In this document: one piece after another, positions 1-13,949 of the stretch
Numbering within the stretch: position 1 is the first letter of the stretch
Layout of the letters: the number at the start of each line of letters is the position of its first letter
From: Clostridia bacterium
GTDB lineage: Bacteria; Bacillota; Clostridia; RUG12999
Assembly (NCBI GenBank): GCA_017396395.1
Contig: JAFQMF010000014.1
Span: 1,884-65,883, forward strand
Length of the DNA stretch: 64,000 bases
Direction: 5' to 3'
Translations under genes and position numbers: made by a program
Notes under the pieces: model-generated
Databases searched by the model: none
Told to the model about the DNA's origin: nothing
What the model saw: the letters and a program-made list of their open reading frames with translations, nothing else

Positions 1-162
1 CTTGTATCTTCACTTGGTAAGTTCTATGGTTTAGTAACAGGCATTAACGATTTAGATGCAATAATTATTGGTAAAGCTTTCGTTGTTATTAACGGACAGA
101 CACATTATGGAGCTCTTAAGTCAGTAGCTGTTGATACAGCTAAATGGCTTGGTACAAAATAA
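1..162 (+). CDS. 3' end of a gene truncated by the window edge, possibly a surface/secreted protein
   Basis: Frame 1 is open from base 1 to TAA at 160-162: LVSSLGKFYGLVTGINDLDAIIIGKAFVVINGQTHYGALKSVAVDTAKWLGTK. Codon usage resembles the well-expressed genes. The product cannot be identified from this fragment. Confidence 0.6.
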   Translation, partial: LVSSLGKFYGLVTGINDLDAIIIGKAFVVINGQTHYGALKSVAVDTAKWLGTK

Positions 163-197
163 TTAAGTGATTAGTCCTTGAAAGGAGACATATTATT

Positions 198-350
198 ATG
201 AAAAAAGTATTTCAGGCACCTGTAGCACAGGTGGTAAAATTCAATGCTCCTGACGTAATTTGCACAAGTACTCCTGTTGAGCCTACTGTTCTTGCTAACA
301 ATGGCGGAAACAATATAGGAACTCAAGATTACGCAGATTTACTTGGCTAA
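198..350 (+). CDS. 50-aa putative RiPP precursor peptide with a lasso-type leader
   Basis: Strong RBS AAAGGAG at 181-187, ATG at 198, TAA at 348-350. Translation: MKKVFQAPVAQVVKFNAPDVICTSTPVEPTVLANNGGNNIGTQDYADLLG. The FxxP motif resembles the YxxP RRE-binding motif of lasso leaders. It lies upstream of PqqD, kinase and peptidase genes and is below the ORF-track length cutoff. Confidence 0.8.
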   Translation: MKKVFQAPVAQVVKFNAPDVICTSTPVEPTVLANNGGNNIGTQDYADLLG

Positions 351-385: not shown

Positions 386-534
386 CATAACCACCCGCCA
401 GGCGGGTGGTTATGATTGTCTAAAGGCTTCTCTGCAGGGAGTGAAGCCTTTAAAAAAGGTATATCAAAAACTAATAAACCCCACTAGAAGGGAAGGGGCT
501 TAATCCTTTCCCTAACCTTTGGGGAAAGGATTAA
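386..534. repeat. Cluster of inverted repeats downstream of the precursor gene
   Basis: CATAACCACCCGCC-a-GGCGGGTGGTTATG (386-414, perfect 14-bp arms); TAAAGGCTTC..GAAGCCTTTA (421-452); TTAATCCTTTCCC..GGGAAAGGATTAA (500-534). Confidence 0.8.
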
Positions 535-567: not shown

Positions 568-1008
568 ATGAAAAAAATTATAGTTTTATTAATGATTTTT
601 ATAATGGCAGTATCCATTACTGCTTTTGCAACAGAAAATATCAGCGTTTATATAGGCAACAAAAAACTTGAGTTTGATGTACAGCCTCAGTTAATTAATG
701 ACAGAACTATGGTACCTATGCGTAAAATTTTTGAAAGCTTAGGTGCTGAGGTAACATGGGTTGGAGAGGCAGAAACTATTGTAGCAACTCGTGATTCACA
801 GATTATAGTTATGGAAATAGGAAAATTAAGCTTTACCGTTACAGACGTAAAAACTGAAGTAACAAAAGAAGTTATTCTTGATGTTCCCCCTCAGTTAGTA
901 GAGAGCAGAACTCTTGTTCCTGTTCGTGCCATTTCAGAAACCTTTGGTTATACTGTAAACTGGGATGATGCTACCACAACCGTAACTATTTTAAGACCTG
1001 CGGCTTAA
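568..1008 (+). CDS. Secreted copper-amine-oxidase-N-terminal (stalk) domain protein
   Basis: Signal peptide MKKIIVLLMIFIMAVSITAFA; two repeats of the P.l...RTxVPxRxIxExxG.xVxW motif typical of Cu_amine_oxidN1. Confidence 0.85.
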   Translation: MKKIIVLLMIFIMAVSITAFATENISVYIGNKKLEFDVQPQLINDRTMVPMRKIFESLGAEVTWVGEAETIVATRDSQIIVMEIGKLSFTVTDVKTEVTKEVILDVPPQLVESRTLVPVRAISETFGYTVNWDDATTTVTILRPAA

Positions 1009-1009
1009 T

Positions 1010-1705
1010 ATGTTTTATATAAAATTAGCAGACTTAAAAATTAAAATTGAAAATAAATATGAATATATTTCAGATATGTGCAAGGATTATTTAACAGACG
1101 GGGGAAATGAAAATTTCTCCCTTTCTGTCACACAGGAGGAGATACTCCGAGAACAGGCAGGACAGGAAGGATTTCCTTTAGGGTATTTAGAAAGCCTTGC
1201 AATTTACCGCAAAATAGCTGAAATGCTTCCTGCATACGGAGGTTTTTTAATGCATGGTGCGGTAATTACCTATGAGGATACGGGGATAGCTTTTCTTGCA
1301 CGCTCAGGCGTAGGAAAGACTACCCATATTGTAAATTGGAAAAAACTATTTGGTGATAAAGTAAAACCTGTTAACGGGGACAAGCCTTTGGTACGGCTTA
1401 TTGATAACAACGTATTTGTTTATGGTACGCCCTGGGCAGGAAAAGAAAATGTTCATCGAAACACACGGGCAATACTGAAAAAGATTTGCTTTATTGAAAG
1501 AGATGTTAACAGTAGTGTAACAGAAATCTCTAAAAAAGAGGCATTTGAAAGATTTTTGCCTCAGGTATATCTTGATAAAAACTATACCGCATTTGGAGTT
1601 ATTGATGAATGTTTTAAAAAGTGTGAATTTTATTTAATTAAATGTAATAGGGATATTTCGTCAGCACAAACTGCATTTGACGGAATAATGACAAAGGGGT
1701 TATAA
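1010..1705 (+). CDS. HPr-kinase-like P-loop protein (PadeK/ScmC-like putative peptide kinase)
   Basis: LMHGA, Walker A ARSGVGKTT, NGDKP and YGTPWAGKE motifs; adjacent to a PqqD gene. Confidence 0.75.
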   Translation: MFYIKLADLKIKIENKYEYISDMCKDYLTDGGNENFSLSVTQEEILREQAGQEGFPLGYLESLAIYRKIAEMLPAYGGFLMHGAVITYEDTGIAFLARSGVGKTTHIVNWKKLFGDKVKPVNGDKPLVRLIDNNVFVYGTPWAGKENVHRNTRAILKKICFIERDVNSSVTEISKKEAFERFLPQVYLDKNYTAFGVIDECFKKCEFYLIKCNRDISSAQTAFDGIMTKGL

Positions 1706-1706
1706 A

Positions 1707-1973
1707 ATGAGAGTAAAAGAAGGGTTTGTTCTTCATACGGTTTGTGATGAAAATCTTGTTGTTCCAATCGGTAAGGCAACAGAGGAATTTCACGGAATGA
1801 TAAGGCTTAACGATACAGGTGCCTTTCTTTGGAAGCTTATGGACTCTGAGTTTTCTAAAGAAACTTTAGTTACGGCACTTCTTTCTGAATATGATGTGGA
1901 GCAGAAGGAAGCACAGGATACTGTAGAGGCATTTTTGAACAATTTAATAGAAAACGGAATTATACAAAAGTGA
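1707..1973 (+). CDS. PqqD-family protein / stand-alone RiPP recognition element (B1-like)
   Basis: 88 aa with the pattern LNDTGAFLW...LLSEYDVE..A...V..FL..L.ENGII. Confidence 0.9.
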   Translation: MRVKEGFVLHTVCDENLVVPIGKATEEFHGMIRLNDTGAFLWKLMDSEFSKETLVTALLSEYDVEQKEAQDTVEAFLNNLIENGIIQK

Positions 1974-2398
1974 AGGAAACAAGTATTAAGCAGGAACTAA
2001 AAGAGGGTAAAACCGTAATTTATTATACTATGGGTATTAGTATGGAGCCTCTATTAAAGGCAAGAAGAACTCATGTAGTTCTTACACCTGTGTCAAAACC
2101 CCAAAAGTACGATATCCTTCTTTATGAAAGACAAGACGGAAAATATGTTCTTCACAGACTTTTGAATATTAAAAATGACTTTTTTTATATTCGCGGAGAC
2201 AATACCTTTTACTTGGAAAAAATTCACCCAAGTCAGATTATAGGTAAAGTATCCAGAGTCTATCGAAATGGAAGATACATAGATGTAGAAAAAAGCTTTA
2301 TTTACAAGGTATATGTTTTGGTAAACATATGGAGTTATCCTTTAAGATTTTTCCGTTACAAGCTTAAAAAACTTCGTGCAAGAAAGCAACGGGGGTAA
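1970..2398 (+). CDS. S24/S26-family (signal-peptidase-like) peptidase
   Basis: GISMEP (catalytic Ser box), DILLY, VLHRL (His), RGDN and IIGKV motifs; the GTG start overlaps the PqqD stop (GTGA). Confidence 0.8.
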   Translation: MKETSIKQELKEGKTVIYYTMGISMEPLLKARRTHVVLTPVSKPQKYDILLYERQDGKYVLHRLLNIKNDFFYIRGDNTFYLEKIHPSQIIGKVSRVYRNGRYIDVEKSFIYKVYVLVNIWSYPLRFFRYKLKKLRARKQRG

Positions 2399-2399
2399 A

Positions 2400-3551
2400 A
2401 TGCTTATGAATAAAAAAATATTAAATACAACAAGTGATTTGTTATATTTGGTAAAGTGCGTTTTAAATGGTAATAAGGCTGACAAAAACCTTATCAATAC
2501 CGAACTAAAAAATATATATTTAATTGCAAAAGCTCACAATCTTTCTGCAATAGTTGCCTATGCTTTTTCAGATATGGATACTCAAGACTTTGCACCTGAA
2601 GAGCAAAAGGTAATTTCAGCCTTTATGGATGAAAAAAATAAGGCTAAGAGGAATATGGTGTTATTTGAGCTTGAGCGTAATGCCCTGACAGACTTTTTTG
2701 AGGAGCAGGGCATTTTGTATATGCTGATGAAGGGTGCGCTGATAAGCAAGCTGTACCCTAAAGCTTTTATGCGTCAGATGGTGGATAACGACATCTGGTT
2801 TGATATAGCCTATGGGGAAAAAGTCATAGAGTGGTTTAAAAATAGGGAATATAATTGTAAAGTGGAAGACACAACTATTCATTATACATTTACTAAAGCA
2901 CCTGTGCTGAATTTTGAACTGCATTATGCTCCTTTATTTGCTAAATTCTGGAACAACACTTTTCATGAGTACTATAAAGAAAAATTTGAAAACCTTATAG
3001 CTAATCATAAAGAAGGTTGTGTCCTTAAATTTTCAGATGAAGATTTTTTTGTTTATATTTTTGCACATGCATATAAGCACTACAGCAACAGAGGTACAGG
3101 ACTTCGCACCCTTGTGGATATTTACCTTTTAAACAAAGAATATTCTAAAAAAATTAATATGGAATATGTAAATCAGCAATTTGAAATTCTTGGTATAACG
3201 GAGTTTGCAAATGATATTATAAACCTTACGCATACTATCTTTCAAGGAAATGGAAATTTAAATAATAAACAAAAAAATATCCTTTCATTTGTTTCAGTAA
3301 GCAATGCTTACGGAAACAGCTACTCCATGGAATTAAACAAAATTAAGAAAGTAACAAACAGTTCAGCTAAAATTAATATATTTGTTAAGATTAAATATAT
3401 TTTAAAGCGAATTTTCCCAAGTGTTAAAAATTTAGATATAAAATATAAAAATGAGAAAAAATATAAAATTCCCATAATTTACATATGCAGATTTGTACGG
3501 GGATTTGGACGTGGGCTGAAAGAGTTAAAATCAATTATTAAAATAAAGTAA
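2400..3551 (+). CDS. Nucleotidyltransferase-family protein (NTP_transf_5-like), paralog 1
   Basis: MKG..I..LYP...MRQMVDNDIWF, NFELH and HAYKHY...GTGLRTLVDIY motifs. Start placed at ATG 2400 (or 2406) after GGGGG, not at the GTG at 2376. Confidence 0.8.
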   Translation: MLMNKKILNTTSDLLYLVKCVLNGNKADKNLINTELKNIYLIAKAHNLSAIVAYAFSDMDTQDFAPEEQKVISAFMDEKNKAKRNMVLFELERNALTDFFEEQGILYMLMKGALISKLYPKAFMRQMVDNDIWFDIAYGEKVIEWFKNREYNCKVEDTTIHYTFTKAPVLNFELHYAPLFAKFWNNTFHEYYKEKFENLIANHKEGCVLKFSDEDFFVYIFAHAYKHYSNRGTGLRTLVDIYLLNKEYSKKINMEYVNQQFEILGITEFANDIINLTHTIFQGNGNLNNKQKNILSFVSVSNAYGNSYSMELNKIKKVTNSSAKINIFVKIKYILKRIFPSVKNLDIKYKNEKKYKIPIIYICRFVRGFGRGLKELKSIIKIK

Positions 3552-3567
3552 GGGTTATGCAATAATT

Positions 3568-4707
3568 ATGACGGAACAATTATTTGTTGTTATGCAAGAT
3601 ATAGTTTATCTTATAGATTGCGTTTCAATGGAAAAGAAAGCTGATATTTCTCGGCTTAAATGCCAACTTAATACTATTTATAATTTTGCTAAACTAAACA
3701 GCTTATCGGCACTGATAGCCTATGCTTTTGAGGATGCTTTAAAATATTCTGACAGGGACAAGTCTGCTATTGTAGCATTTGAAGAAGAAAAAAACATAGC
3801 TATGCGTAATATGGTGCTCTTTGAACTGGAAAGAAATTGTCTTGTTGATTTTTTAAAGAAAAACGACATATTTCATATGATACTTAAAGGGGTACATATA
3901 AGCGATTTATATCCAAAACCTTTTATGCGTCAGGTGGCAGACAATGATATCTGGTTTGACAAGTCATATGAAAATCAGGTTGTCAGCTGGTTTAAGGACA
4001 GGGGATATACTTGTAAAATGAACGCTCCCGTTCATTATGAATTCACAAAAGAACCAGTGCTTAACTTTGAAATGCATCACACCTCTCTTTTTTCAAAAAG
4101 CGGATATGATGTTTTCTATGAATATTATAACGAAAAGCTTCAAAGCCTTGTTTTAAACAGCAAAGACTTTCAACTGAATTTTTCTGATGAAGATTTTTAT
4201 GTGTATATAATTTGTCACAGTTATAAGCATTATACTGAGGCAGGGACAGGCTTTCGAACATTAGTTGATTTGTTTTTCTTAAATAAAAAACTTTCAGAAA
4301 AGCTTAATCGTGATTATATAGACAGTCAGCTTAAAAAGCTGGGCATTTACGATTTCGAACAAAGCTTGCAGGAAATTTGCAAAGCGGTTTTCTTAAAGAA
4401 AAGCTTAGATGAAAAAAATAAAAAAATGCTTTTGTACATATTAAACGCAGGAACTTATGGAGATAGAGTTACCAATATGTCCAACAAAATAAAAAGGGTA
4501 ACGGGGGGAAAGGTTAATGCCTTTACAAAGGCTAAATATATTCTTTCAAGAGTGTTTCCAAAGCCTGAAATAATTAAGGAAAGATATGGTAAAATAGGTA
4601 TAGTGTTATTACCTGTATTTTACTTAATTCGTATTTTGCAGTGCATTTTTAAGGGATTTTCAAAAGGGTTAAATGAAATCAGGTGGATTTTAAAGGCAAA
4701 ACAATAG
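3568..4707 (+). CDS. Nucleotidyltransferase-family protein (NTP_transf_5-like), paralog 2
   Basis: LKG..I..LYP...MRQVADNDIWF, NFEMH and HSYKHY...GTGFRTLVDLF motifs; colinear with the upstream paralog. Confidence 0.8.
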   Translation: MTEQLFVVMQDIVYLIDCVSMEKKADISRLKCQLNTIYNFAKLNSLSALIAYAFEDALKYSDRDKSAIVAFEEEKNIAMRNMVLFELERNCLVDFLKKNDIFHMILKGVHISDLYPKPFMRQVADNDIWFDKSYENQVVSWFKDRGYTCKMNAPVHYEFTKEPVLNFEMHHTSLFSKSGYDVFYEYYNEKLQSLVLNSKDFQLNFSDEDFYVYIICHSYKHYTEAGTGFRTLVDLFFLNKKLSEKLNRDYIDSQLKKLGIYDFEQSLQEICKAVFLKKSLDEKNKKMLLYILNAGTYGDRVTNMSNKIKRVTGGKVNAFTKAKYILSRVFPKPEIIKERYGKIGIVLLPVFYLIRILQCIFKGFSKGLNEIRWILKAKQ

Positions 4708-4716
4708 GAGTTTGGT

Positions 4717-6402
4717 ATGAAAAATTCTACAGTAAAAAGACTTTCAAAGGTTATTGGAAAATACAAGTTTAATATTTTAGTTCTTAGTATTATACAGCTT
4801 ATCAGCGGTGTAATTACTGTATATTTTGCACTAGCTATGAAGCAGACAGTGGATTTTGCAGTGAGCAAAAGTGCTGAGGGATTTAAAATTTCCTTTATAT
4901 CCCTGATTTCTCTTGTTATATTTCAAATTTTATTGCATGTGTTTGCAAGATATTTTTACGAGCTTACCCTTGCAAATGTTGAAAACAGGTTTCAGTCAAG
5001 ACTATTTGAAACACTTTTAAACAAGGATTTTTCTGCTGTTACCGCTTTCCACTCAGGAGAATGGATGAACAGACTTACTTCAGATGTTTCAATTGTAACA
5101 TCAAGCGTTGTTAATATTATACCCTCTGCAGTAGGTATGATTGTGCGTCTTACAGGTGCACTTATAGTTATTGTGGCACTGGAGCCTAAATTTTTGTTAT
5201 TTTTGTTGCCTTGCGGATTAGGCGTAGCATTATTCAGCTTTTTATTACGAAAAAAAATGAAGAAAATGCATAAAAATGTTCGCGAAGCAGACGGAAGGCT
5301 CAGAGGATATTTACAGGAACAGTTAACAAGCGGTGTACTTATAAGATGTTTTGGTGCTCAGAAAGACACCCTTTCTAAAGCAAAGGGTTATATGGGAGAA
5401 TATAAAAGAGAGAGAATTAAAAAAAGCAATTTTTCAAACGCTGCAAATGTTCTTCTTTCTGTTGGTGTAAACGCACTTTATTTAATGGGACTGGGTTTTT
5501 CCTGCGTGCGTCTTTTAGCAGGAAGTATTACATATGGTACACTGACAGCACTATTACAGCTGGTGGGTCAGCTTCAGTCTCCTGTAATAGGTCTTACGGG
5601 AATTATACCAAGATTTTACAGTATGATTGCAAGTGCAGAGCGTCTTAATGAGGCAGAGGATTTTCCAGAGGATATTTCAGAAACTTTAATGGAATATGCT
5701 CCTGTAATGGAGTATTTTAATAAGGATTTTTTACAGATACAGTTTAATAATGTAAGCTTTGCATATCCGGGTTCTGAGGAAGATGAGGTAACCCATAATG
5801 CTAACTTAACCATAAATAAAGGGGATTGTGTTGCTTTAGTAGGTTATTCAGGCAGCGGAAAATCCACTTTAATCAAGCTGTTGTTATCCTTGTATTCGCC
5901 AACTAAAGGTGAGATTGTTTTAAAAGATAATAAAGGGGAAAGTATTCCTCTTACAGGAGCTTGGAGAAGGCTTTTTGCCTATGTTCCGCAGGATAACAGG
6001 CTTACCAGTGGGTCAATACGTGATGCCGTAGCTTTTTCAAGACCAAATGAAAGAGATAATGACAGCAAAATAATAGAGGCATTAAAGGTAGCATCTGCAG
6101 ATGAGTTTGTATTAAGCTTGCCAAAGGGAATAGATAGTATGCTAAGTGAGTGCGGTGGCGGAATATCCGAAGGGCAGATGCAGAGAATTGCAGTTGCAAG
6201 GGCTGTTTTTTCTGAAAGTCCCATACTTCTTCTTGACGAGGCGACCAGTGCACTTGACGGAAAGACAGAAAGCAGGCTTTTAGAAAATATAAAAAATATG
6301 ACAGATAAAACGGTGCTTTTAATTGCTCACAGGCCCGCAGCACTGGAAATCTGCAATAAGATATATGATGTAAGTGATAATGGAATAAATCAAATTAAGT
6401 AA
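4717..6402 (+). CDS. ABC exporter with fused permease and ATPase domains
   Basis: N-terminal TM helices, Walker A GYSGSGKST, signature variant ISEGQ, Walker B ILLLDE, H-loop IAHR; no C39 peptidase domain. Confidence 0.9.
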   Translation: MKNSTVKRLSKVIGKYKFNILVLSIIQLISGVITVYFALAMKQTVDFAVSKSAEGFKISFISLISLVIFQILLHVFARYFYELTLANVENRFQSRLFETLLNKDFSAVTAFHSGEWMNRLTSDVSIVTSSVVNIIPSAVGMIVRLTGALIVIVALEPKFLLFLLPCGLGVALFSFLLRKKMKKMHKNVREADGRLRGYLQEQLTSGVLIRCFGAQKDTLSKAKGYMGEYKRERIKKSNFSNAANVLLSVGVNALYLMGLGFSCVRLLAGSITYGTLTALLQLVGQLQSPVIGLTGIIPRFYSMIASAERLNEAEDFPEDISETLMEYAPVMEYFNKDFLQIQFNNVSFAYPGSEEDEVTHNANLTINKGDCVALVGYSGSGKSTLIKLLLSLYSPTKGEIVLKDNKGESIPLTGAWRRLFAYVPQDNRLTSGSIRDAVAFSRPNERDNDSKIIEALKVASADEFVLSLPKGIDSMLSECGGGISEGQMQRIAVARAVFSESPILLLDEATSALDGKTESRLLENIKNMTDKTVLLIAHRPAALEICNKIYDVSDNGINQIK

Positions 6403-6544: not shown

Positions 6545-7126
6545 TTATTTCTTTTTATGTTTATTTTTTTTCTTTACTGAAAATCCAAAATCTCCCAGAT
6601 ACTTACCAAGTGTATAATAACTGCCGTGAGCATAAGCAAGAAGATCTGCTTTCCAAAGACAGATTTTTCCGTTTTTATCAATAAGATTGCTATCCACATT
6701 TACAGCAAGAATTTCTGCCATAAACACATTATGAGTACCAAGAGGAGTTTCGTTTATTACCTTGCACTCGATATTTACAGGACACTGAGAAATTAAAGGT
6801 GCAGATACACGGGTAGCATTTAAGGCAGTGAGCTTAAATTCAGCAAATTTATCAATATCTCTGCCACTTTTAACTCCGCAAATATCACAAACTTTAACAA
6901 GTGATGCTGGCACTAAATTTATAACAAACTGCCCTGTGCGTCTTATAATTTCATATGAATGTCTTGAGGGACGCACAGATATATATGTAATTGGCGGGTC
7001 TGTACACATAGTTCCTGTCCAGGCAACAGTAAAAATATTTTGCTGATTTTCGTCACCGCAGGAAACAAGTGTAGGTGGTACAGGGGAGAGCATAGCTCCG
7101 CCTTTGAATGTTGTTTTATTCATCAT
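6545..7126 (-). CDS. Flavin reductase-like (DIM6/NTAB) protein
   Basis: PVPPTLVSCG, TVAWTG, ISVRPSRHSY, CGVKSGRD and LGTHNVF motifs. Confidence 0.85.
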   Translation of the reverse strand: MMNKTTFKGGAMLSPVPPTLVSCGDENQQNIFTVAWTGTMCTDPPITYISVRPSRHSYEIIRRTGQFVINLVPASLVKVCDICGVKSGRDIDKFAEFKLTALNATRVSAPLISQCPVNIECKVINETPLGTHNVFMAEILAVNVDSNLIDKNGKICLWKADLLAYAHGSYYTLGKYLGDFGFSVKKKNKHKKK

Positions 7127-7137
7127 AGAAACCTACT

Positions 7138-7806
7138 TTATACATTTTCTATCTGCCAGTCAATTTTTTTCTCACCTATTGAGGAAAGTATGGCATTGGT
7201 TTTGGAAAAGTGCTTGCAACCAAAAAAACCGCCATAGGCAGAAAGAGGACTTGGATGTACTGTAGTAAGTACATAGTGATGGGGATTTGTAATATACTTT
7301 AGCTTTTCCTTTGCATTTCCACCCCAAAGAAGGAAGATTACAGGAGTTTTTCTTTCGTTAAGTGCTTTTATTACACTATCGGTAAAGGTTGTCCATCCAG
7401 TTTTTTTATGGGAATTTGCTTTTCCTTCCTCTACAGTAAGCACAGTATTAAGGAGCAATACTCCTTGCTTTGCCCACTTTTCCAAATATCCGTTATCAGG
7501 AATATAACAGCCAAGGTCGCTGTTTAATTCTTTGTACATATTACAAAGACTGGGCGGAATAGTAATACCTTTATTTACTGAAAAAGCAAGTCCGTGTGCC
7601 TGCCCCTGCTCGTGGTATGGGTCCTGACCTAAAATTACTACTTTAACATCATCATAATCAGTAAACTTAAAAGCATTAAATATACAGTCTTTTGGAGGAA
7701 ATATAGTTTTGTTTGCATATTCCTCATTTACAAAAGCCATAAGCTTTATAAAATAGTCTTTTTCCGTTTCTTGCTTTAAAACCTTATCCCATTTTGTATT
7801 AAACAT
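7138..7806 (-). CDS. ung: Uracil-DNA glycosylase, family 1
   Basis: GQDPYH, LLLNTVLTV and HPSPLS catalytic motifs. Confidence 0.97.
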   Translation of the reverse strand: MFNTKWDKVLKQETEKDYFIKLMAFVNEEYANKTIFPPKDCIFNAFKFTDYDDVKVVILGQDPYHEQGQAHGLAFSVNKGITIPPSLCNMYKELNSDLGCYIPDNGYLEKWAKQGVLLLNTVLTVEEGKANSHKKTGWTTFTDSVIKALNERKTPVIFLLWGGNAKEKLKYITNPHHYVLTTVHPSPLSAYGGFFGCKHFSKTNAILSSIGEKKIDWQIENV

Positions 7807-7814
7807 AATAACCT

Positions 7815-8672
7815 CTATTTTTTGTAGAAAATAACTGCAAATGCACCATCGCCGGTATTAATTCCGATTGTAGGACCAATGTAGGAAATGCCTGTTACTG
7901 TTATTCCTAAATTTTCTTCCATAGCATTTTTGAATTCTTCTGCTTTTTCAGGAATATCAGCGTGAACAATCCATATTTCAGAGGCATTTTCAATGCCTTC
8001 CTCTTTTGCAAGCTGAAGAAGCTTTGGAATAACCTTCTTTTTTCCTCGCACCTTTTCTTTTGACTCTACAAGTCCATCCTCAATAGAAAGTATAGGCTTA
8101 ATATCAAGAATGTCTGCAATAGTAGCAACAGAAGGTTTAATTCTTCCGCCTGCTTTCAAATATTTAAGATTATCAACCGCAAAAAGAGCAACCTGACGTT
8201 GAAGCATAGGATAAATTTTATCTAAAATCTGGGATTTATCAGCACCACTTTGTGCCATTTCTGCTGCAACTTCCGCAACTCGTCCATACATAAGGCTATA
8301 TGACATTGTGTCAATAACTTCCACATCCAGTTTTATTCCATCTTCTTCCAACATCTTGCAGGCAAGGTTTGCATTATTATATGTGCCGCTTCCTGCTTTA
8401 GATATAGTAAAGCATAAAACGGTGTCATAGCCTTCCTCAGCCGCCTCTTTATACGCATCATAAAAAGTGGTGGGAGAAATCTGTGAAGTGGTAGGAAGCT
8501 CAGACATTTCTTTCAGCTTTTTGTAAAATTCCTGATATTTAATATCATAATAGTCTAAAACAAGCTCTTCCCCAAACATAATATTTATGGGAAGTACTTT
8601 AATTCCGTATTTTTCAATAGCCTGGTAGCGTAAATCTCCCGCAGAGTCGCACATAATTTTAATTTTTGACAT
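7815..8672 (-). CDS. DegV-family fatty-acid-binding protein
   Basis: DSAGDL, PTTSQ, SGTYN, LKYLKAGGRI and IKPIL motifs. Confidence 0.92.
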   Translation of the reverse strand: MSKIKIMCDSAGDLRYQAIEKYGIKVLPINIMFGEELVLDYYDIKYQEFYKKLKEMSELPTTSQISPTTFYDAYKEAAEEGYDTVLCFTISKAGSGTYNNANLACKMLEEDGIKLDVEVIDTMSYSLMYGRVAEVAAEMAQSGADKSQILDKIYPMLQRQVALFAVDNLKYLKAGGRIKPSVATIADILDIKPILSIEDGLVESKEKVRGKKKVIPKLLQLAKEEGIENASEIWIVHADIPEKAEEFKNAMEENLGITVTGISYIGPTIGINTGDGAFAVIFYKK

Positions 8673-8693
8673 AACAATTCTCCTTACTGTATG

Positions 8694-9869
8694 TTATATT
8701 GATAACCATGCCTTAAGTACGTGATAAAAGGCTTGGAAAATATTCATTTTTTTTACTTCAACAGAGGTTTTTGCCTGTGTGGTAGAAACAAGCACATTAT
8801 CCACATATATATTAACTTTGCCTACCACACTGCCCTTTGGAACAGGGGCAACCAAGCTGTTATCAATTTCATATTCTGCCCTTACTAAACTTTTCTTGGA
8901 AGAGGGTATAAAGGCAGTTATATCCTTGTCACAGAAAAGAGCAACCTTAGACTTGTTGCCTCTTTGAACGTTAACATAAATTGTATTTCCCTCAGTGTCT
9001 TTCAAAATACCTTTTTTCTGTATAATTTCAGGAGTGAATGAGGAATAAGTATATTCAAAAAGATATTTTGCCTCAGAAAATCTGGTAGGACTGTCAGGAG
9101 CACCTAAAATAACACAAATAAGTTTAACATTATCCTTTTGTGCAGTAGCGGTAAGACAATATCCTGCTCCGTCTGTTGTACCTGTTTTAAGTCCCGTTGC
9201 ATACTGGTAGTTGGAAAGCAAGTTGTTTGTGTTAATAAGGGGGAAAGTACCATCCCGAAGGGTATCCGAAACAGTTGCGGAGTGAGCCATAATTCTTGGA
9301 TGATTAAGCAAAACCTCACGGGAGATTTTTGCAATATCACGAGCGGTAGAATAATGACCTTCTGCATCAAGACCGGAAGCGGTAACATAGTGGGTATCCT
9401 TTAAACCAAGCTTCTGTGCTCTTTTGTTCATAAGCTGTACAAAGGCTTCTTCCGACCCTGCAATATGCTCGGCAAGGGCAACAGCTGCATCGTTTGCACT
9501 TGGTATAGAGATACTCTTTAAAATATCATCAAGTGTCATTTTTTCACCGTCGTCAAGATATACACGGCTGCCGGGAGTTTCCTTTGCTGTTGCTGTTCCG
9601 GTAACAATTTCCGTAAGCTTAAGCTTTCCCTCCTCCAAATACTCATCTGCAATTAAAAGCACCATAAGCTTTGTTATACTTGCCATTGGCATTTTCTCAT
9701 CAGGATTTTTAGCCATAATTACATATCCTGTGTCTGCATCCATCAAAAGAATGGATTTTGCATCAAATGCATCAGGGTCAAGGTTGCAAAATGGCGAAGT
9801 TTGAGCATTTACACAAACAGATGAAAAACATAATATTAAAATCAGAATAACGCTGAATATTTTCTTCAT
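8694..9869 (-). CDS. D-alanyl-D-alanine carboxypeptidase (peptidase S11, DacA/DacF-like)
   Basis: Signal peptide; SxxK (ASITK), SAN and KTG motifs; C-terminal PBP5 domain. Confidence 0.92.
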   Translation of the reverse strand: MKKIFSVILILILCFSSVCVNAQTSPFCNLDPDAFDAKSILLMDADTGYVIMAKNPDEKMPMASITKLMVLLIADEYLEEGKLKLTEIVTGTATAKETPGSRVYLDDGEKMTLDDILKSISIPSANDAAVALAEHIAGSEEAFVQLMNKRAQKLGLKDTHYVTASGLDAEGHYSTARDIAKISREVLLNHPRIMAHSATVSDTLRDGTFPLINTNNLLSNYQYATGLKTGTTDGAGYCLTATAQKDNVKLICVILGAPDSPTRFSEAKYLFEYTYSSFTPEIIQKKGILKDTEGNTIYVNVQRGNKSKVALFCDKDITAFIPSSKKSLVRAEYEIDNSLVAPVPKGSVVGKVNIYVDNVLVSTTQAKTSVEVKKMNIFQAFYHVLKAWLSI

Positions 9870-9889
9870 ATATACAAATTCCTTTATTA

Positions 9890-11044
9890 TTAAAATACTA
9901 CAATAACACTTGTTTTAGCAGAGGAGGTAGTTATTTGCTTATAAGGTATTTGAAAAAAGTCAAGGACTTCTTCAACAGGAAGCATAGGTAGATTTCTCAG
10001 CACTATGCTGGCATCAGTATCCTGGGCACATACAAATTCGAATTTTTTACCTTCTCTGTTTGATATATAACCCTCATAATAATTTGAATATCCGTAATTG
10101 TTTTCCTCTGTTTCAACATGAGAGTAAAAGTCAGAACTGGGTATATGAATATAATAATCATAAAATCCGTAATATATGTCATTTTCCAGTGTGGGATGCA
10201 TAGTAAAATCCGCTTCACAGGCTTCCAAAATTTTAGCTATTCCATCTGCAGTCATATAAACTATGCCGTTATCCTTTATTATTGGTCTGCCTGTATCTGC
10301 AATAGGGAAAACCTGTCCGCCTGTTGTTTGAATACAGGTAAATGCATAATCTTTATAAGTAAATGGGTCAATATAATGCATACCATTATTTCTTTTTAGC
10401 TGGTATATTTTTAATCTAAGTAACATAGTAACCGCTTCTGCTCTTGTAAGGTATGAATAAGGAGCAAGCTCTCTTTTGTCATTACCCTGAATTATTTCGT
10501 GAGCAAAACAGGAGTATGCGGAAATTATATAAAGGTCATTAAAAAGGTCTCCTGAATCAGTAAAATGTTCAATTCCAACAAGTGCCTTTGCTGCATTTTT
10601 CTCGCTTAGCCGATGGGGCGGAGAAAGCTTAAGGCTTACTAAGGTATTATCAAAAAGCACATTTATCATAAGACGAAGTGCAGGAGAATCATAAAAGCCT
10701 ACTAATTCTTCCTGAGTAAAATTATTAAGTATTCCACATTCAAAGGCTTCGTTTACATATTCTGTGTACCACTGCTGACTATCTGTAATTTCAGGTCTGA
10801 GACCTGTAACAACAGGAACAAGCATAGCAAGCACTTCAGCTAATGTAATAGGGGAGTCCGGGTCAAACTTTCCTCCCGGATGTCCCTGAATAAGACCCAT
10901 AGCTGCAGCTTTTTCAATATATTCTTCGGCCCAGTGACCTGAAATATCACAGTAGGCGGGTGTATTTGCCGTAACAGCTACTGGAAATATCAAGCAAAAA
11001 AGCAAAATAAAAGATACAAGTTTGTTTATTAATTTTTTCATCAA
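9890..11044 (-). CDS. S-layer homology (SLH) domain protein
   Basis: Signal peptide; DISGHWAE..I..A...GLIQG...G.F.PD..IT.AE and TRAEA SLH motifs. Confidence 0.85.
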   Translation of the reverse strand: MMKKLINKLVSFILLFCLIFPVAVTANTPAYCDISGHWAEEYIEKAAAMGLIQGHPGGKFDPDSPITLAEVLAMLVPVVTGLRPEITDSQQWYTEYVNEAFECGILNNFTQEELVGFYDSPALRLMINVLFDNTLVSLKLSPPHRLSEKNAAKALVGIEHFTDSGDLFNDLYIISAYSCFAHEIIQGNDKRELAPYSYLTRAEAVTMLLRLKIYQLKRNNGMHYIDPFTYKDYAFTCIQTTGGQVFPIADTGRPIIKDNGIVYMTADGIAKILEACEADFTMHPTLENDIYYGFYDYYIHIPSSDFYSHVETEENNYGYSNYYEGYISNREGKKFEFVCAQDTDASIVLRNLPMLPVEEVLDFFQIPYKQITTSSAKTSVIVVF

Positions 11045-11252
11045 AATATCTTACTTTTTTAATTTAAAATTAAAAAAAGCATTCCTTTCAAGTGAAAATA
11101 TATACAGATATATTATATAATAATGGGGAGTTTTTGTCAATAAGAAATGCCCTTTGCATTTGAATTTTAATACCTGCGTAAAAATAATGACAAAAAAACA
11201 AAAATATGTTATAAACCGCTTTTTTTAAAGTTGCCAATAGGGGAAAATAGTA

Positions 11253-11281
11253 TTGACACTAACTGGAAAATAAAGTATAAT
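11253..11281 (+). promoter_or_regulatory. sigma-A promoter of alaS
   Basis: TTGACA-17 bp-TATAAT, perfect consensus. Confidence 0.8.
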
Positions 11282-11309
11282 AATAAGTAGATTATTTTTT
11301 TGAAAGGCA

Positions 11310-13949
11310 ATGAGTAGTATGGAAAAATTAGGACTTAATGAAATACGTGAAAGATATCTTTCTTTTTTTGAAGGCAAGGGACATCTTCGTATGCCCTCAT
11401 TCTCTTTAGTTCCGCAAAATGACCCAAGTCTTTTGCTGATTAATGCAGGTATGGCACCTTTAAAGCCTTATTTTACAGGAGCAAGAATTCCTCCCAGAAA
11501 AAGGGTTACTACTTGCCAGAAATGTATCAGAACTCCCGATATTGAGAGAGTTGGACATACTGCACGTCACGGCACTTTTTTTGAAATGCTGGGAAACTTC
11601 TCTTTCGGGGATTATTTTAAACATGAAGCTACTGCATGGGCATGGGAATTTATTACAAAAGACCTTAAAATGCCTGTAGATAAGCTTTGGGTTACTATAT
11701 ATCTTGATGATGATGAAGCCTTTGATATATGGACAAAGGAAGTAGGAGTTGACCCTTCTCATATTGTAAGATTAGGTAAGGAAGACAACTTCTGGGAACA
11801 TGGTACAGGTCCTTGCGGTCCCTGTTCTGAAATCTATTTTGACAGAGGGGTTGAAAAGGCTTGCAGTCCTGACTGTAAACTGGGATGCGACTGTGACCGA
11901 TATGTGGAATTCTGGAACCTTGTTTTCACTCAGTTTGACAAGGACGAAGAGGGTAATTATAACCGCCTTCCAAATCCTAATATTGATACAGGTATGGGAC
12001 TTGAACGTCTTGCTGCTATTATGCAGGGTGTTGACAACTTATTTGAAGTAGATACTGTAAGAAATATTATGATGCATATCTGTGATATTGCAGGTGTTAA
12101 GTATAATGATAATGAAAATACAGACGTTTCATTAAGAGTTGTAACTGACCATATCAGAAGCACTACAATGATGATTAGTGACGGCGTTCTTCCTTCAAAT
12201 GAAGGCAGAGGATATGTTCTTCGCAGACTTCTTAGAAGAGCTGCCCGTCATGGAAGACTTCTTGGAATTAAAGGTGCTTTTCTTGCAGATGTTGCAGGTA
12301 CTGTAATTAAAGAATCAGGAAACGCATATCCGCAGCTTGTGGAAAAGGCTGATTATATTAAAAAGATTATCAGCGTTGAAGAAGGAAGATTTAACGAAAC
12401 TATAGATAATGGTCTTCTTATATTGAACGAATATATTGACCAGACTAAAAAAGAGGGCAAATCCTCTCTTTCGGGGGAAAAGGCATTTAAGCTTTATGAT
12501 ACCTATGGATTTCCTCTTGACTTAACTGTGGAAATTCTTGCTGAGCAGGACTTATCAGTTGATAAAGAAGAATTTGACAGACTTATGCAGAACCAGAAGG
12601 ATACTGCACGTACTTCCAGAAAAGACGGCTCTTCATGGGATGCTGCCGATACAGCATATATCAGTGTAACAGAAGCTACAAACTTTGTAGGATATGAAAA
12701 TGATACACAAAAGGGTAAAATTCTTTTCCTTGCAACAGGAGGAGAGGGTGTTTCAACACTTAGTGCAGGTATGGAAGGTATTATCATTACCGATACAACC
12801 GTATTCTATGGCGAAGGCGGAGGGCAGGTAGGAGATACAGGTATAATTATAGGTGATAAAGGTAAGGCACAGGTAATTGATACAAAGAAAAATCACGATG
12901 GCGTTTATATGCATATTGCAAAGGTGCTTGAAGGTGAATTTAACTTGGAACAAACCGTAACCCTTGCAATTGATAAAGACAGAAGAGATGCTGTTTCCCG
13001 CAACCATTCCACAACACATATGTTGCAAAAAGCACTTAAAATGGTACTGGGAGGCCATGTTGAACAAGCAGGCTCTTATGTTGATGAAAAACGTCTTAGA
13101 TTTGATTTTGCTCATTTTGAAGCTATGACTCCGGACCAGATTGCTCAGGTTGAGGATATTGTTAATAAAGAAATTCTTGCTGGGGATGTTATCACTACTC
13201 AGGTGCTCCCCATAAATGAAGCTAAAAAACTGGGAGCAACAGCATTATTCGGTGAAAAATACGGTGACAATGTGCGTGTTGTAAAAATGGGAGATTTCAG
13301 TATTGAGTTTTGTGGTGGTTGCCATCTTACCAATACTGCAAATGCAGGAATGTTCAAGCTTCTTAGTGAAACAGGTGTTGCTGCAGGCGTAAGAAGAATT
13401 GAAGGTGTTACAGGACTTGGAGTTTTAGAATATATAAGAGAGAAAAATGCCCTTATTTCTAAGACTGCGGAAGCTTTAAAAACAACAGAGGGAGAACTTA
13501 TAACAAGAGCAAACGGAGTTATAAATGAAATCCGTGATTTGAAAAGTGAGCTTGAAGCTGCTAAATCCAAGCTTGCAGGGGGAATGCTTGATGAAATTAT
13601 TTCTCTTGCTCAGGTTAAAGAGGGAGTAAGTGTTATTGCTACACCCGTAAAAGGTATGAAGGGTGATGAGCTTAGAACTCTTTGCGACAAAATTAAGGAT
13701 AAGCTTCCTTGTTCTGCTATGATTATAGCAAGCGAGTCAGATGGCAAGATTACCTTTGTAGGTATGGCAACAAAAGAAGCTGTAGCAAAGGGAATTCATA
13801 TTGGAAATACCATTAAAGCTGCCACTTTGGTTGTTGGCGGTAACGGTGGCGGAAAGCCTGATATGGCTCAGGGTGCTGGTAAGGATGTTTCCAAGATAAA
13901 TGACGCAATAGAAGTGGCAAAGCAAACTCTTCTTGATATGATTAAATAG
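11310..13949 (+). CDS. alaS: Alanine-tRNA ligase
   Basis: NAGM, TFFEMLGNFSFGDYFK and DTGMGLER motifs, editing HxxxH and CGGxH, C-terminal GGG motif. The start may be ATG 11319. Confidence 0.98.
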   Translation: MSSMEKLGLNEIRERYLSFFEGKGHLRMPSFSLVPQNDPSLLLINAGMAPLKPYFTGARIPPRKRVTTCQKCIRTPDIERVGHTARHGTFFEMLGNFSFGDYFKHEATAWAWEFITKDLKMPVDKLWVTIYLDDDEAFDIWTKEVGVDPSHIVRLGKEDNFWEHGTGPCGPCSEIYFDRGVEKACSPDCKLGCDCDRYVEFWNLVFTQFDKDEEGNYNRLPNPNIDTGMGLERLAAIMQGVDNLFEVDTVRNIMMHICDIAGVKYNDNENTDVSLRVVTDHIRSTTMMISDGVLPSNEGRGYVLRRLLRRAARHGRLLGIKGAFLADVAGTVIKESGNAYPQLVEKADYIKKIISVEEGRFNETIDNGLLILNEYIDQTKKEGKSSLSGEKAFKLYDTYGFPLDLTVEILAEQDLSVDKEEFDRLMQNQKDTARTSRKDGSSWDAADTAYISVTEATNFVGYENDTQKGKILFLATGGEGVSTLSAGMEGIIITDTTVFYGEGGGQVGDTGIIIGDKGKAQVIDTKKNHDGVYMHIAKVLEGEFNLEQTVTLAIDKDRRDAVSRNHSTTHMLQKALKMVLGGHVEQAGSYVDEKRLRFDFAHFEAMTPDQIAQVEDIVNKEILAGDVITTQVLPINEAKKLGATALFGEKYGDNVRVVKMGDFSIEFCGGCHLTNTANAGMFKLLSETGVAAGVRRIEGVTGLGVLEYIREKNALISKTAEALKTTEGELITRANGVINEIRDLKSELEAAKSKLAGGMLDEIISLAQVKEGVSVIATPVKGMKGDELRTLCDKIKDKLPCSAMIIASESDGKITFVGMATKEAVAKGIHIGNTIKAATLVVGGNGGGKPDMAQGAGKDVSKINDAIEVAKQTLLDMIK

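Follow-up and report, generated by a model that had tools for sequence, protein, structure and literature searches.

A 50-codon gene heading a Clostridia operon probably encodes the precursor of an LPP-type phosphopeptide

The closest described relatives of the locus analysed here are the linear polyphosphorylated peptides (LPP), known from the lppAKBSDN cluster of Paenibacillus alginolyticus DSM5050 (Popov et al., Nat Commun 2026;17:6633, PMC13381572). A literature search found no other paper on the LPP system, and the main text of that report mentions neither Clostridia nor the gut. [quoted passage not shown] The precursors have a conserved N-terminus, YxxPxVLxHQxIxFETxxS, followed by variable C-termini, and were mined with the motif Px9Fx[T/A]. 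In a heterologous host, the kinase LppK adds one to four phosphates to core residue Ser3 before the precursor is cleaved, and the substitutions S3A, S3T and S3Y abolish this phosphorylation. The peptidase LppS cuts after T-1 and frees a phosphorylated C-terminal 45-mer, whereas the unphosphorylated precursor is poorly cleaved. LppS requires the RRE protein LppB, and residues F-3, E-2 and T-1 of the leader matter for cleavage whereas core residues 1-5 do not. The leader is held by LppB through Y-16 and P-13, with Asp70 of LppB hydrogen-bonding the Tyr hydroxyl, and an Asn (N33 in LppB) marks the RREs of LPP clusters. No effect of LppN was visible in the published heterologous host (PMC13381572 for all of these points).

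A second group of described systems, the paeninodin- and pseudomycoidin-type lasso clusters, resembles the present operon in having an HprK-like kinase, a nucleotidyltransferase, a PqqD B1-type RRE, an ABC exporter and a YxxP-type leader, as set out in PMC6993621 and PMC7533575. The operon differs from these clusters, as described there, in having neither a lasso cyclase nor a cysteine-protease B2, and its peptide has no ring-forming acidic residue. The acceptor Ser would lie beside the leader junction in our peptide, whereas in paeninodin and pseudomycoidin it is C-terminal.

The window (the whole stretch of 64,000 nucleotides analysed here) belongs to a gut Clostridia MAG, uncultured and with a small genome (1.28 Mb in 19 contigs, 92.6% complete), a host unlike that of the described LPP cluster. 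The features of the locus are collected in Table 1. All operon genes downstream of the precursor gene lie on the plus strand, separated by small gaps or overlapping. The peptide gene heads this series, and the view of the first-pass annotation that the peptide is a precursor belonging with the PqqD and S26 genes is supported. [quoted passage not shown] Since it carries the full LPP gene set, we filed it as an LPP-type cluster. It departs from the published cluster, as described in that report, in having two NTP transferases and an additional secreted protein with a PF07833 domain, and in its position downstream of a gene for a large secreted protein, the published one being embedded in a capsule locus. 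Beyond the operon, window positions 6545-13949 hold minus-strand genes of housekeeping appearance, among them an 879-aa frame (11310-13949) resembling alanyl-tRNA synthetase (translations read by eye).

Table 1. Features of the locus and of related loci. Positions without prefix are those of the window; E values and models as obtained in this analysis.
Feature	Position	Strand	Evidence or remark
3' end of large secreted repeat protein gene	1..162	+	>=680 aa, Flg_new/InlB B-repeat domains, runs to contig end
Ribosome-binding site AAAGGAGA	181..188	+	read from sequence; GGAG to ATG, 10 nt
Precursor peptide gene, 50 aa	198..350	+	ATG start, stop included; translates exactly to MKKVFQAPVAQVVKFNAPDVICTSTPVEPTVLANNGGNNIGTQDYADLLG
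Predicted precursor layout	leader ~residues 1-23; core/tail 24/25-50		Phe5-x-x-Pro8, Asp19-Val-Ile and Thr23 in leader; invariant Ser24; core/tail acidic and hypervariable
Three strong hairpins behind precursor gene	381-419, 421-452, 500-534	+	RNA fold
Small secreted protein, copper amine oxidase N-terminal-like PF07833 domain	568..1008	+	Pfam E 4.2e-33
HprK-like P-loop kinase (LppK-like), 231 aa, presumed Ser24 kinase	1010..1705	+	AF2 pLDDT 93.5, Foldseek
Discrete PqqD-type RiPP recognition element (LppB-like)	1707..1973	+	PF05402 E 8.8e-18
Archaeal/ER-type signal-peptidase-like S26 leader peptidase (LppS-like)	1970..2398	+	TIGR02228 E 5.1e-6, below cut-off
PF14907 nucleotidyltransferase copy 1 (LppN-like)	2376..3551	+	Pfam E 9.1e-34
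PF14907 nucleotidyltransferase copy 2 (LppN-like)	3568..4707	+	Pfam E 2.6e-30
MsbA-like ABC exporter (LppD-like)	4717..6402	+	ABC_membrane and ABC_tran; best NCBIfam MsbA_rel E 1.3e-76, below cut-off
Putative four-helix membrane protein, 150 aa, directly before kinase	L010:2675-3142, L012:4243-4710, L013:5527-5979, L019:5534-5995, L020:5550-5996, L043:3222-3668		
Second HprK-like/PqqD pairs	G001:C21, G012:C8, G014:C7, G020:C34, G013:C200 (L112-L116, L120-L122)		

The kinase of the window had no Pfam, NCBIfam or meaningful PDB sequence match. Its predicted structure, on the other hand, gave PEP carboxykinase and HprK/P (1kkl_B, E 1.7e-6) as top Foldseek matches with a probability of 1.00. The P-loop SGVGKTT was invariant in an alignment of 23 sequences (A1), homologues carry precomputed PF07475 and PF27840 assignments, and of 1,860 candidate proteins 1,436 fell into the family at E <= 1e-3. 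Six homologues (P0034, P0070, P0081, P0085, P0091 and P0097) of about 360 aa also contain a Peptidase_S24 domain and are probably kinase-peptidase fusions.

For the PqqD protein, the best PDB sequence match was 9x8z_B (E 3.8e-6), which is LppB in the LppB-LppA leader complex (PMC13381572), ahead of the lasso B1 proteins 9x90_B (4.5e-4) and 6jx3_B, suggesting a closer kinship to LppB than to lasso B1. Its N35 occupies the position of LppB N33, and this Asn is present in 25 of 26 relatives. In a single pairwise alignment read by eye, Asp70 of LppB falls on Thr72 of the window protein, with Asp71 adjacent. Together with the Phe that replaces the Tyr of the described LPP leader, this Thr is suggestive of a matching change on the two sides of the contact.

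In the S26-type peptidase, the residues Ser24, His62 and Asp77 (enzyme numbering) were invariant in 40/40 family members. The comparison with signal peptidase I (PDB 4me8_A, E 0.0013) placed a His where the bacterial enzyme has a Lys, and relatives of the peptidase pass PF00717. The assignment to the archaeal/ER type was made from the family alignment and the matches to TIGR02228 and 4me8_A. With the SipW-type signal peptidases (archaeal/ER-type, S26B) the protein shares the GxSMxP Ser box, the HR box, in which His replaces the bacterial Lys, and the GDN box. It differs from them in having no N-terminal membrane anchor before the Ser box, and it would act on a cytoplasmic RRE-bound leader instead of a Sec signal peptide.

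The open reading frame at the head of the operon, its peptide and its ribosome-binding site were as the first-pass annotation had given them, and the translation confirmed that Ser24 is the only Ser and that the peptide ends in Gly. The description of the peptide as unannotated was right in that it is nameless and matches no Pfam or NCBIfam family; nevertheless an identical 50-aa protein, also nameless, was already recorded in the protein collection and in the ESM Atlas. A word-indexed protein search with the peptide returned only itself. An exhaustive phmmer search of 1.84 billion representatives returned, besides the peptide, three long repetitive proteins that match the TSTPVEPT stretch and were not taken as relatives. 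Unnamed clusters of 48-49 aa in the ESM Atlas (score ~0.9) were kept as a lead only.

The reality of the gene was addressed at two levels. A leader HMM of 24 columns was built from small ORFs of other genomes only, the window peptide being excluded, although the seed ORFs had initially been recruited by phmmer with this peptide at weak E-values; they match one another at E 1e-10 to 6e-17. Among 47,369 six-frame stop-to-stop segments of the genome, the ORF was the sole match to this profile (E 9.5e-5; runner-up E 2.5). A near-identical contig from another strain (sequencing run X6, depth 3.4) showed 10 differences over positions 154-727. The 217-nt spacer that follows the ORF had 8 of them and the 153-nt ORF itself a single one, a synonymous C>T change at 254 in the third position of codon 19 (Asp). 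The 50-codon ORF is a genuine gene.

The spacer itself is strongly structured. The predicted fold of positions 345-570 had an energy of -79.8 kcal/mol (z -6.2, none of 200 shuffles as good) and a terminator-like site lies at 395-409. In the third hairpin, which has a 16-bp stem, the changes of the strain contig at 503/504 and 530/531 are paired and amount to two compensatory base-pair swaps, while those at 400 and 516 fall in hairpin loops. The hairpins occur nowhere else in the genome, and a search of positions 1-1100 with Rfam gave no family above the gathering score. The three hairpins probably act as a partial terminator or as RNA-stabilising elements.

We searched for relatives of the peptide through its kinase. 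A pattern scan, with one genome per species, yielded at least 600 stretches, of which at least 571 encode a kinase relative, and the best 80 loci of these were analysed. The iterated leader HMM detected 26 related small ORFs in 19 of these best 80 loci, nearly all of them near the kinase gene and on its strand. Five tandem copies of the precursor were found in one locus, L077. This locus is labelled as a Synergistaceae MAG; in a quick tree its kinase sits among Clostridia, a placement that points to transfer or to a binning error. Within the bacterial family of the window, 5 of the 24 other genomes held the strongest full-length matches to the kinase, five in number and 47-58% identical to it; the 4 genomes from the window's own genus gave no match. 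The precursor was present at 4 of these 5 same-family kinase loci, two of which duplicate loci already in the set.

Alignment of the 26 ORFs and the window peptide by hmmalign gave the leader consensus KKYxxPEIxVIxFxxxD[IV][IV]x[TA]S(G). The aromatic position is Tyr in 20 and Phe in 5 of 26 sequences, and the Pro is found in 19/27. The Asp before the junction is kept in 24/26 and is followed by two hydrophobic positions, the first Ile in 16 and Val in 10 of 26, the second, three residues before the Ser, Ile in 21 and Val in 5 of 26. The next column, two before the Ser, is variable (T 11, Q 9, C 2, others), and the one directly before the Ser holds Thr in 15 and Ala in 6 of 25 sequences. The Ser was found in 25/25 and a Gly after it in 14/19. 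In a MAFFT alignment of the window peptide with 25 members (A2), Ser24 was the only invariant column and Asp19 the only column at or above 90%; left out of A2 were L084 and L077:766, which match the leader partially, L077:1109, which has no start codon, and L094 and L096, which duplicate L012 and L019. In L077, the junction is preserved in four of the tandem copies, where the Ser is preceded by K, S, D or R and a Thr stands one place earlier. Column entropy was low across the leader and exceeded 3 bits at every tail position directly past Ser-Gly. We used column entropy in place of pairwise identity of tails and leaders, which is uninformative because free gapping inflates the identity of the tails. 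The proposal that the Thr-Ser pair is the key site of the peptide is thus borne out: across the 26 aligned members Ser24 alone is invariant, and conservation stops there. The family appears to be divergent in its leader, which pins down this single invariant Ser.

Compared with the leader of the described LPP precursors, only an outline is kept. The published motifs, YxxPxVLxHQxIxFETxxS and Px9Fx[T/A], are absent; the two systems have in common an aromatic-x-x-Pro motif of the kind bound by the RRE ([Y/F]xxP), a hydrophobic-x-[T/A] sequence with a conserved Ser close behind it, and a conserved N-terminus followed by a highly variable C-terminus. The spacing from the Pro to the -3 position is 13 in the window peptide and 10 in LPP (P-x12-[IV] against P-x9-F). 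For a cut before the Ser of the [TA]|S junction, the conserved Ser would be at +1 (+2 in L077), against +3 in LPP, and the core would have 27 residues, against 45 in the LPP of PMC13381572.

The tails are 7-34 aa long, rich in G, T, D, E and N, and net-negative in 25/26 members. Despite their variability they contain shared motifs: WLDSWN ends both precursor copies of L043, a C-terminal stretch is common to the copies of L012, and LDEDELPP is shared by L044 and L055, which come from different species and whose leaders are about 50% identical.

Taken with the composition of the operon, these observations make it likely that the ORF encodes an LppA-like precursor of an LPP-type RiPP. By homology to the P. 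alginolyticus system, the N-terminal residues up to about position 23 would serve as leader, with Phe5-x-x-Pro8 and the following beta-strand binding the PqqD protein. The HprK-like kinase would add one or more phosphates to Ser24, which is the probable phosphate acceptor, being the only Ser of the peptide and the LPP kinase being Ser-specific. The S26-type peptidase, aided by the PqqD protein, would take off the leader by a cut immediately upstream of Ser24. Further decoration of the phosphate may fall to the two PF14907 nucleotidyltransferases, and the MsbA-like pump would export the acidic core of 27 residues. The Thr-Ser pair most likely marks the junction of leader and core. The sequence [IV]-x-[TA] before the Ser mirrors the F-x-[T/A] of LPP and so favours a cut after Thr23, which would place Ile21 at -3, Cys22 at -2 and Thr23 at -1 and give a core beginning with phospho-Ser. 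This assignment is uncertain, since the distance from the Pro to the cut is three residues longer than in LPP, since the spacing from the aromatic residue suggests instead a cut after Val20 or Ile21, since in L077 the residue preceding the Ser is K, S, D or R, and since the family profile misses the LppA leader, whose chain was not found at E <= 10 in a profile search of the PDB. All three candidate sites, after Val20, Ile21 or Thr23, leave Ser24 on the C-terminal fragment. Counted against the LPP reading were the departures of the leader from the published consensus, the Thr aligned with Asp70 of LppB, the detection of a family precursor in only 19 of the best 80 related loci, the absence of a PqqD gene from the loci of the nearest kinase relatives, and the lack of a visible effect of LppN in the published host.

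These nearest relatives (L010, L012, L013, L019-L021, L024 and L043) have a reduced gene set consisting of the precursor, a PF07833 or SLH protein, a putative four-helix membrane protein, the kinase and the peptidase; L027 has the same set without the gene of the membrane protein. Neither a PqqD nor a nucleotidyltransferase nor an ABC gene was found at these loci, and the leaders at L010, L012, L013, L019, L020 and L043 still carry YxxP. In L024, an SLH-domain protein holds the slot that the PF07833 protein has in the window. In five genomes with PqqD-less loci, a PqqD gene is found at another site, paired with an additional and longer HprK-like gene (286-303 aa; Table 1). For three of them (G001, G012 and G014) the ORFs listed around this second pair included no recognisable peptidase gene or precursor, and a pair of this kind is absent from the genome of the window. 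When the neighbouring genes were clustered by single-sequence phmmer and BLAST, PqqD, S26 and nucleotidyltransferase genes were under-called, and the counts of ABC genes were not used because the iterated ABC HMM drifted onto the P-loop of the kinase. Many loci that lack this precursor family (L028, L035, L037, L039, L046-L049, L064 and L067) have a lipoprotein gene directly upstream of the kinase. These lipoproteins have a signal peptide ending in Cys, a long low-complexity region rich in S, T, D and E, and conserved C-terminal motifs, either GG[ST]DPYVEDIF or DILGP[GD]WT[PL]PQ-like with [Y/W]xxP. They may be other substrates of the kinase, PqqD protein and peptidase.

A rival explanation is a secreted signalling or surface-associated peptide, whose leader would be an export or processing signal only and whose tail alone would be active, with the kinase acting elsewhere. 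The hypervariability of the tails and their lineage-specific C-terminal motifs resemble the way in which pheromones diversify; the closest loci have a putative four-helix membrane protein and lack PqqD, nucleotidyltransferase and ABC genes; and the precursor gene directly follows genes of large secreted proteins. We nevertheless regard this explanation as unlikely. The invariant Ser beside the junction would need another explanation, the window locus has the full LPP enzyme set, and every locus has the kinase gene as a neighbour, a constancy to be read with the fact that the loci were found by the kinase.

The first-pass annotation had proposed the reverse arrangement, in which cleavage occurs after Ser24, the RRE-bound N-terminal 24-mer with its C-terminal Ser, phosphorylated or not, serves as product or carrier, and the tail is a follower to be discarded. 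A Ser at -1 fits the small-residue rule of type I signal peptidases, this Ser is invariant, the N-terminal half is the conserved half, and the paeninodin-type kinase has been reported to act on a C-terminal Ser (PMC7533575). The enzymology of LPP, as given in PMC13381572, goes the other way: the kinase acts on an internal Ser, the peptidase cuts N-terminal to the phospho-Ser after F-x-[T/A], to which the [IV]-x-[TA]|S of the family is parallel, and the phosphorylated C-terminal fragment is the released product. A cut after Ser24 would moreover put the most variable column of the junction at -3. The motifs kept in the tails between paralogues and between species argue against a disposable tail, as does the acidic character common to the tails. 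As for the sequence logo suggested as a check, conservation did end at Thr-Ser with variable tails behind it, but this outcome does not discriminate between the two arrangements, because an ordinary leader-core precursor, in which a conserved N-terminus and a variable C-terminus are normal, gives the same pattern. We consider this reversed arrangement improbable.

It is very improbable that the peptide is a lasso precursor whose cyclase and B2 protease are encoded elsewhere or in the part of the genome that was not assembled. In its favour speak the [Y/F]xxP motif of the leader, a Thr near the junction and, shared with paeninodin-type clusters, the kinase, nucleotidyltransferase and ABC genes; the best NCBIfam family of the PqqD protein is lasso_PqqD_Bac (E 4.2e-11, below cut-off), and a genome complete to 92.6% leaves some room for missing genes. 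The argument already made against a lasso ring was confirmed: taking Thr23 as -2 makes Thr25 the first core residue, and core positions 7-9 then read V-L-A, without Asp or Glu. At the level of the whole genome there was no match to PF13471 (B2) and no credible cyclase, the Asn_synthase family (PF00733) giving two weak partial matches in frames of 353 and 367 aa on another contig. In the operon the S26-type peptidase occupies the place of B2, and the ORFs listed for the related loci, only a few of these loci being scanned against Pfam, included no recognisable lasso cyclase or B2-type gene. Finally, that positions 198-350 are a chance, untranslated ORF can practically be dismissed, for, although no Pfam or NCBIfam family matches the peptide, the ORF has a good ribosome-binding site, is the only match in its genome to a profile built from other genomes, keeps its position relative to homologous kinases in many species, and differs between strains only at a synonymous site.

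We return to the LPP reading and to the genes that precede the precursors. In at least 15 of 28 instances, the precursor starts between -8 and +35 nt from the stop codon of a gene for a large secreted protein. Such upstream proteins range from 457 to more than 1,777 aa (window 1-162 with L008:3-2045, and L010, L012, L013, L019, L020, L024 and L043). Their C-terminal 160 aa, those of the window protein included, form one similarity network, and the large protein and the precursor are duplicated as a unit in L012 and in L043. For the C-terminal domain of the upstream protein, AF2 gives an all-beta model of low confidence (pLDDT 59.2). One tentative and rather doubtful joint reading is that the LPP-like phosphopeptide is one half of a two-gene cassette with the large secreted protein, and that the S/T/D/E-rich lipoproteins of the relatives are alternative, follower-recognised substrates. 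The phosphorylated, anionic peptide may then be the cognate ligand, anchor or modifier of the surface protein or of the PF07833/SLH wall protein and not a free antibiotic.

LPPs were first described in 2026, and mainly from Bacilli. The present locus and its relatives place LPP-type machinery in many uncultured gut Clostridia, with the kinase family in at least 571 species-level genomes. On the sequences compared here, what appears to be new relative to the published LPPs is the divergent leader and the conserved pairing with large secreted proteins. The leader with its single invariant Ser, the existence of minimal loci without RRE and the consistent link of the precursor to genes of large secreted proteins are handles on the role of the phosphopeptide, offered here by a compact and complete operon of 6 kb. 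If the cassette reading were true, it would give LPPs their first function.
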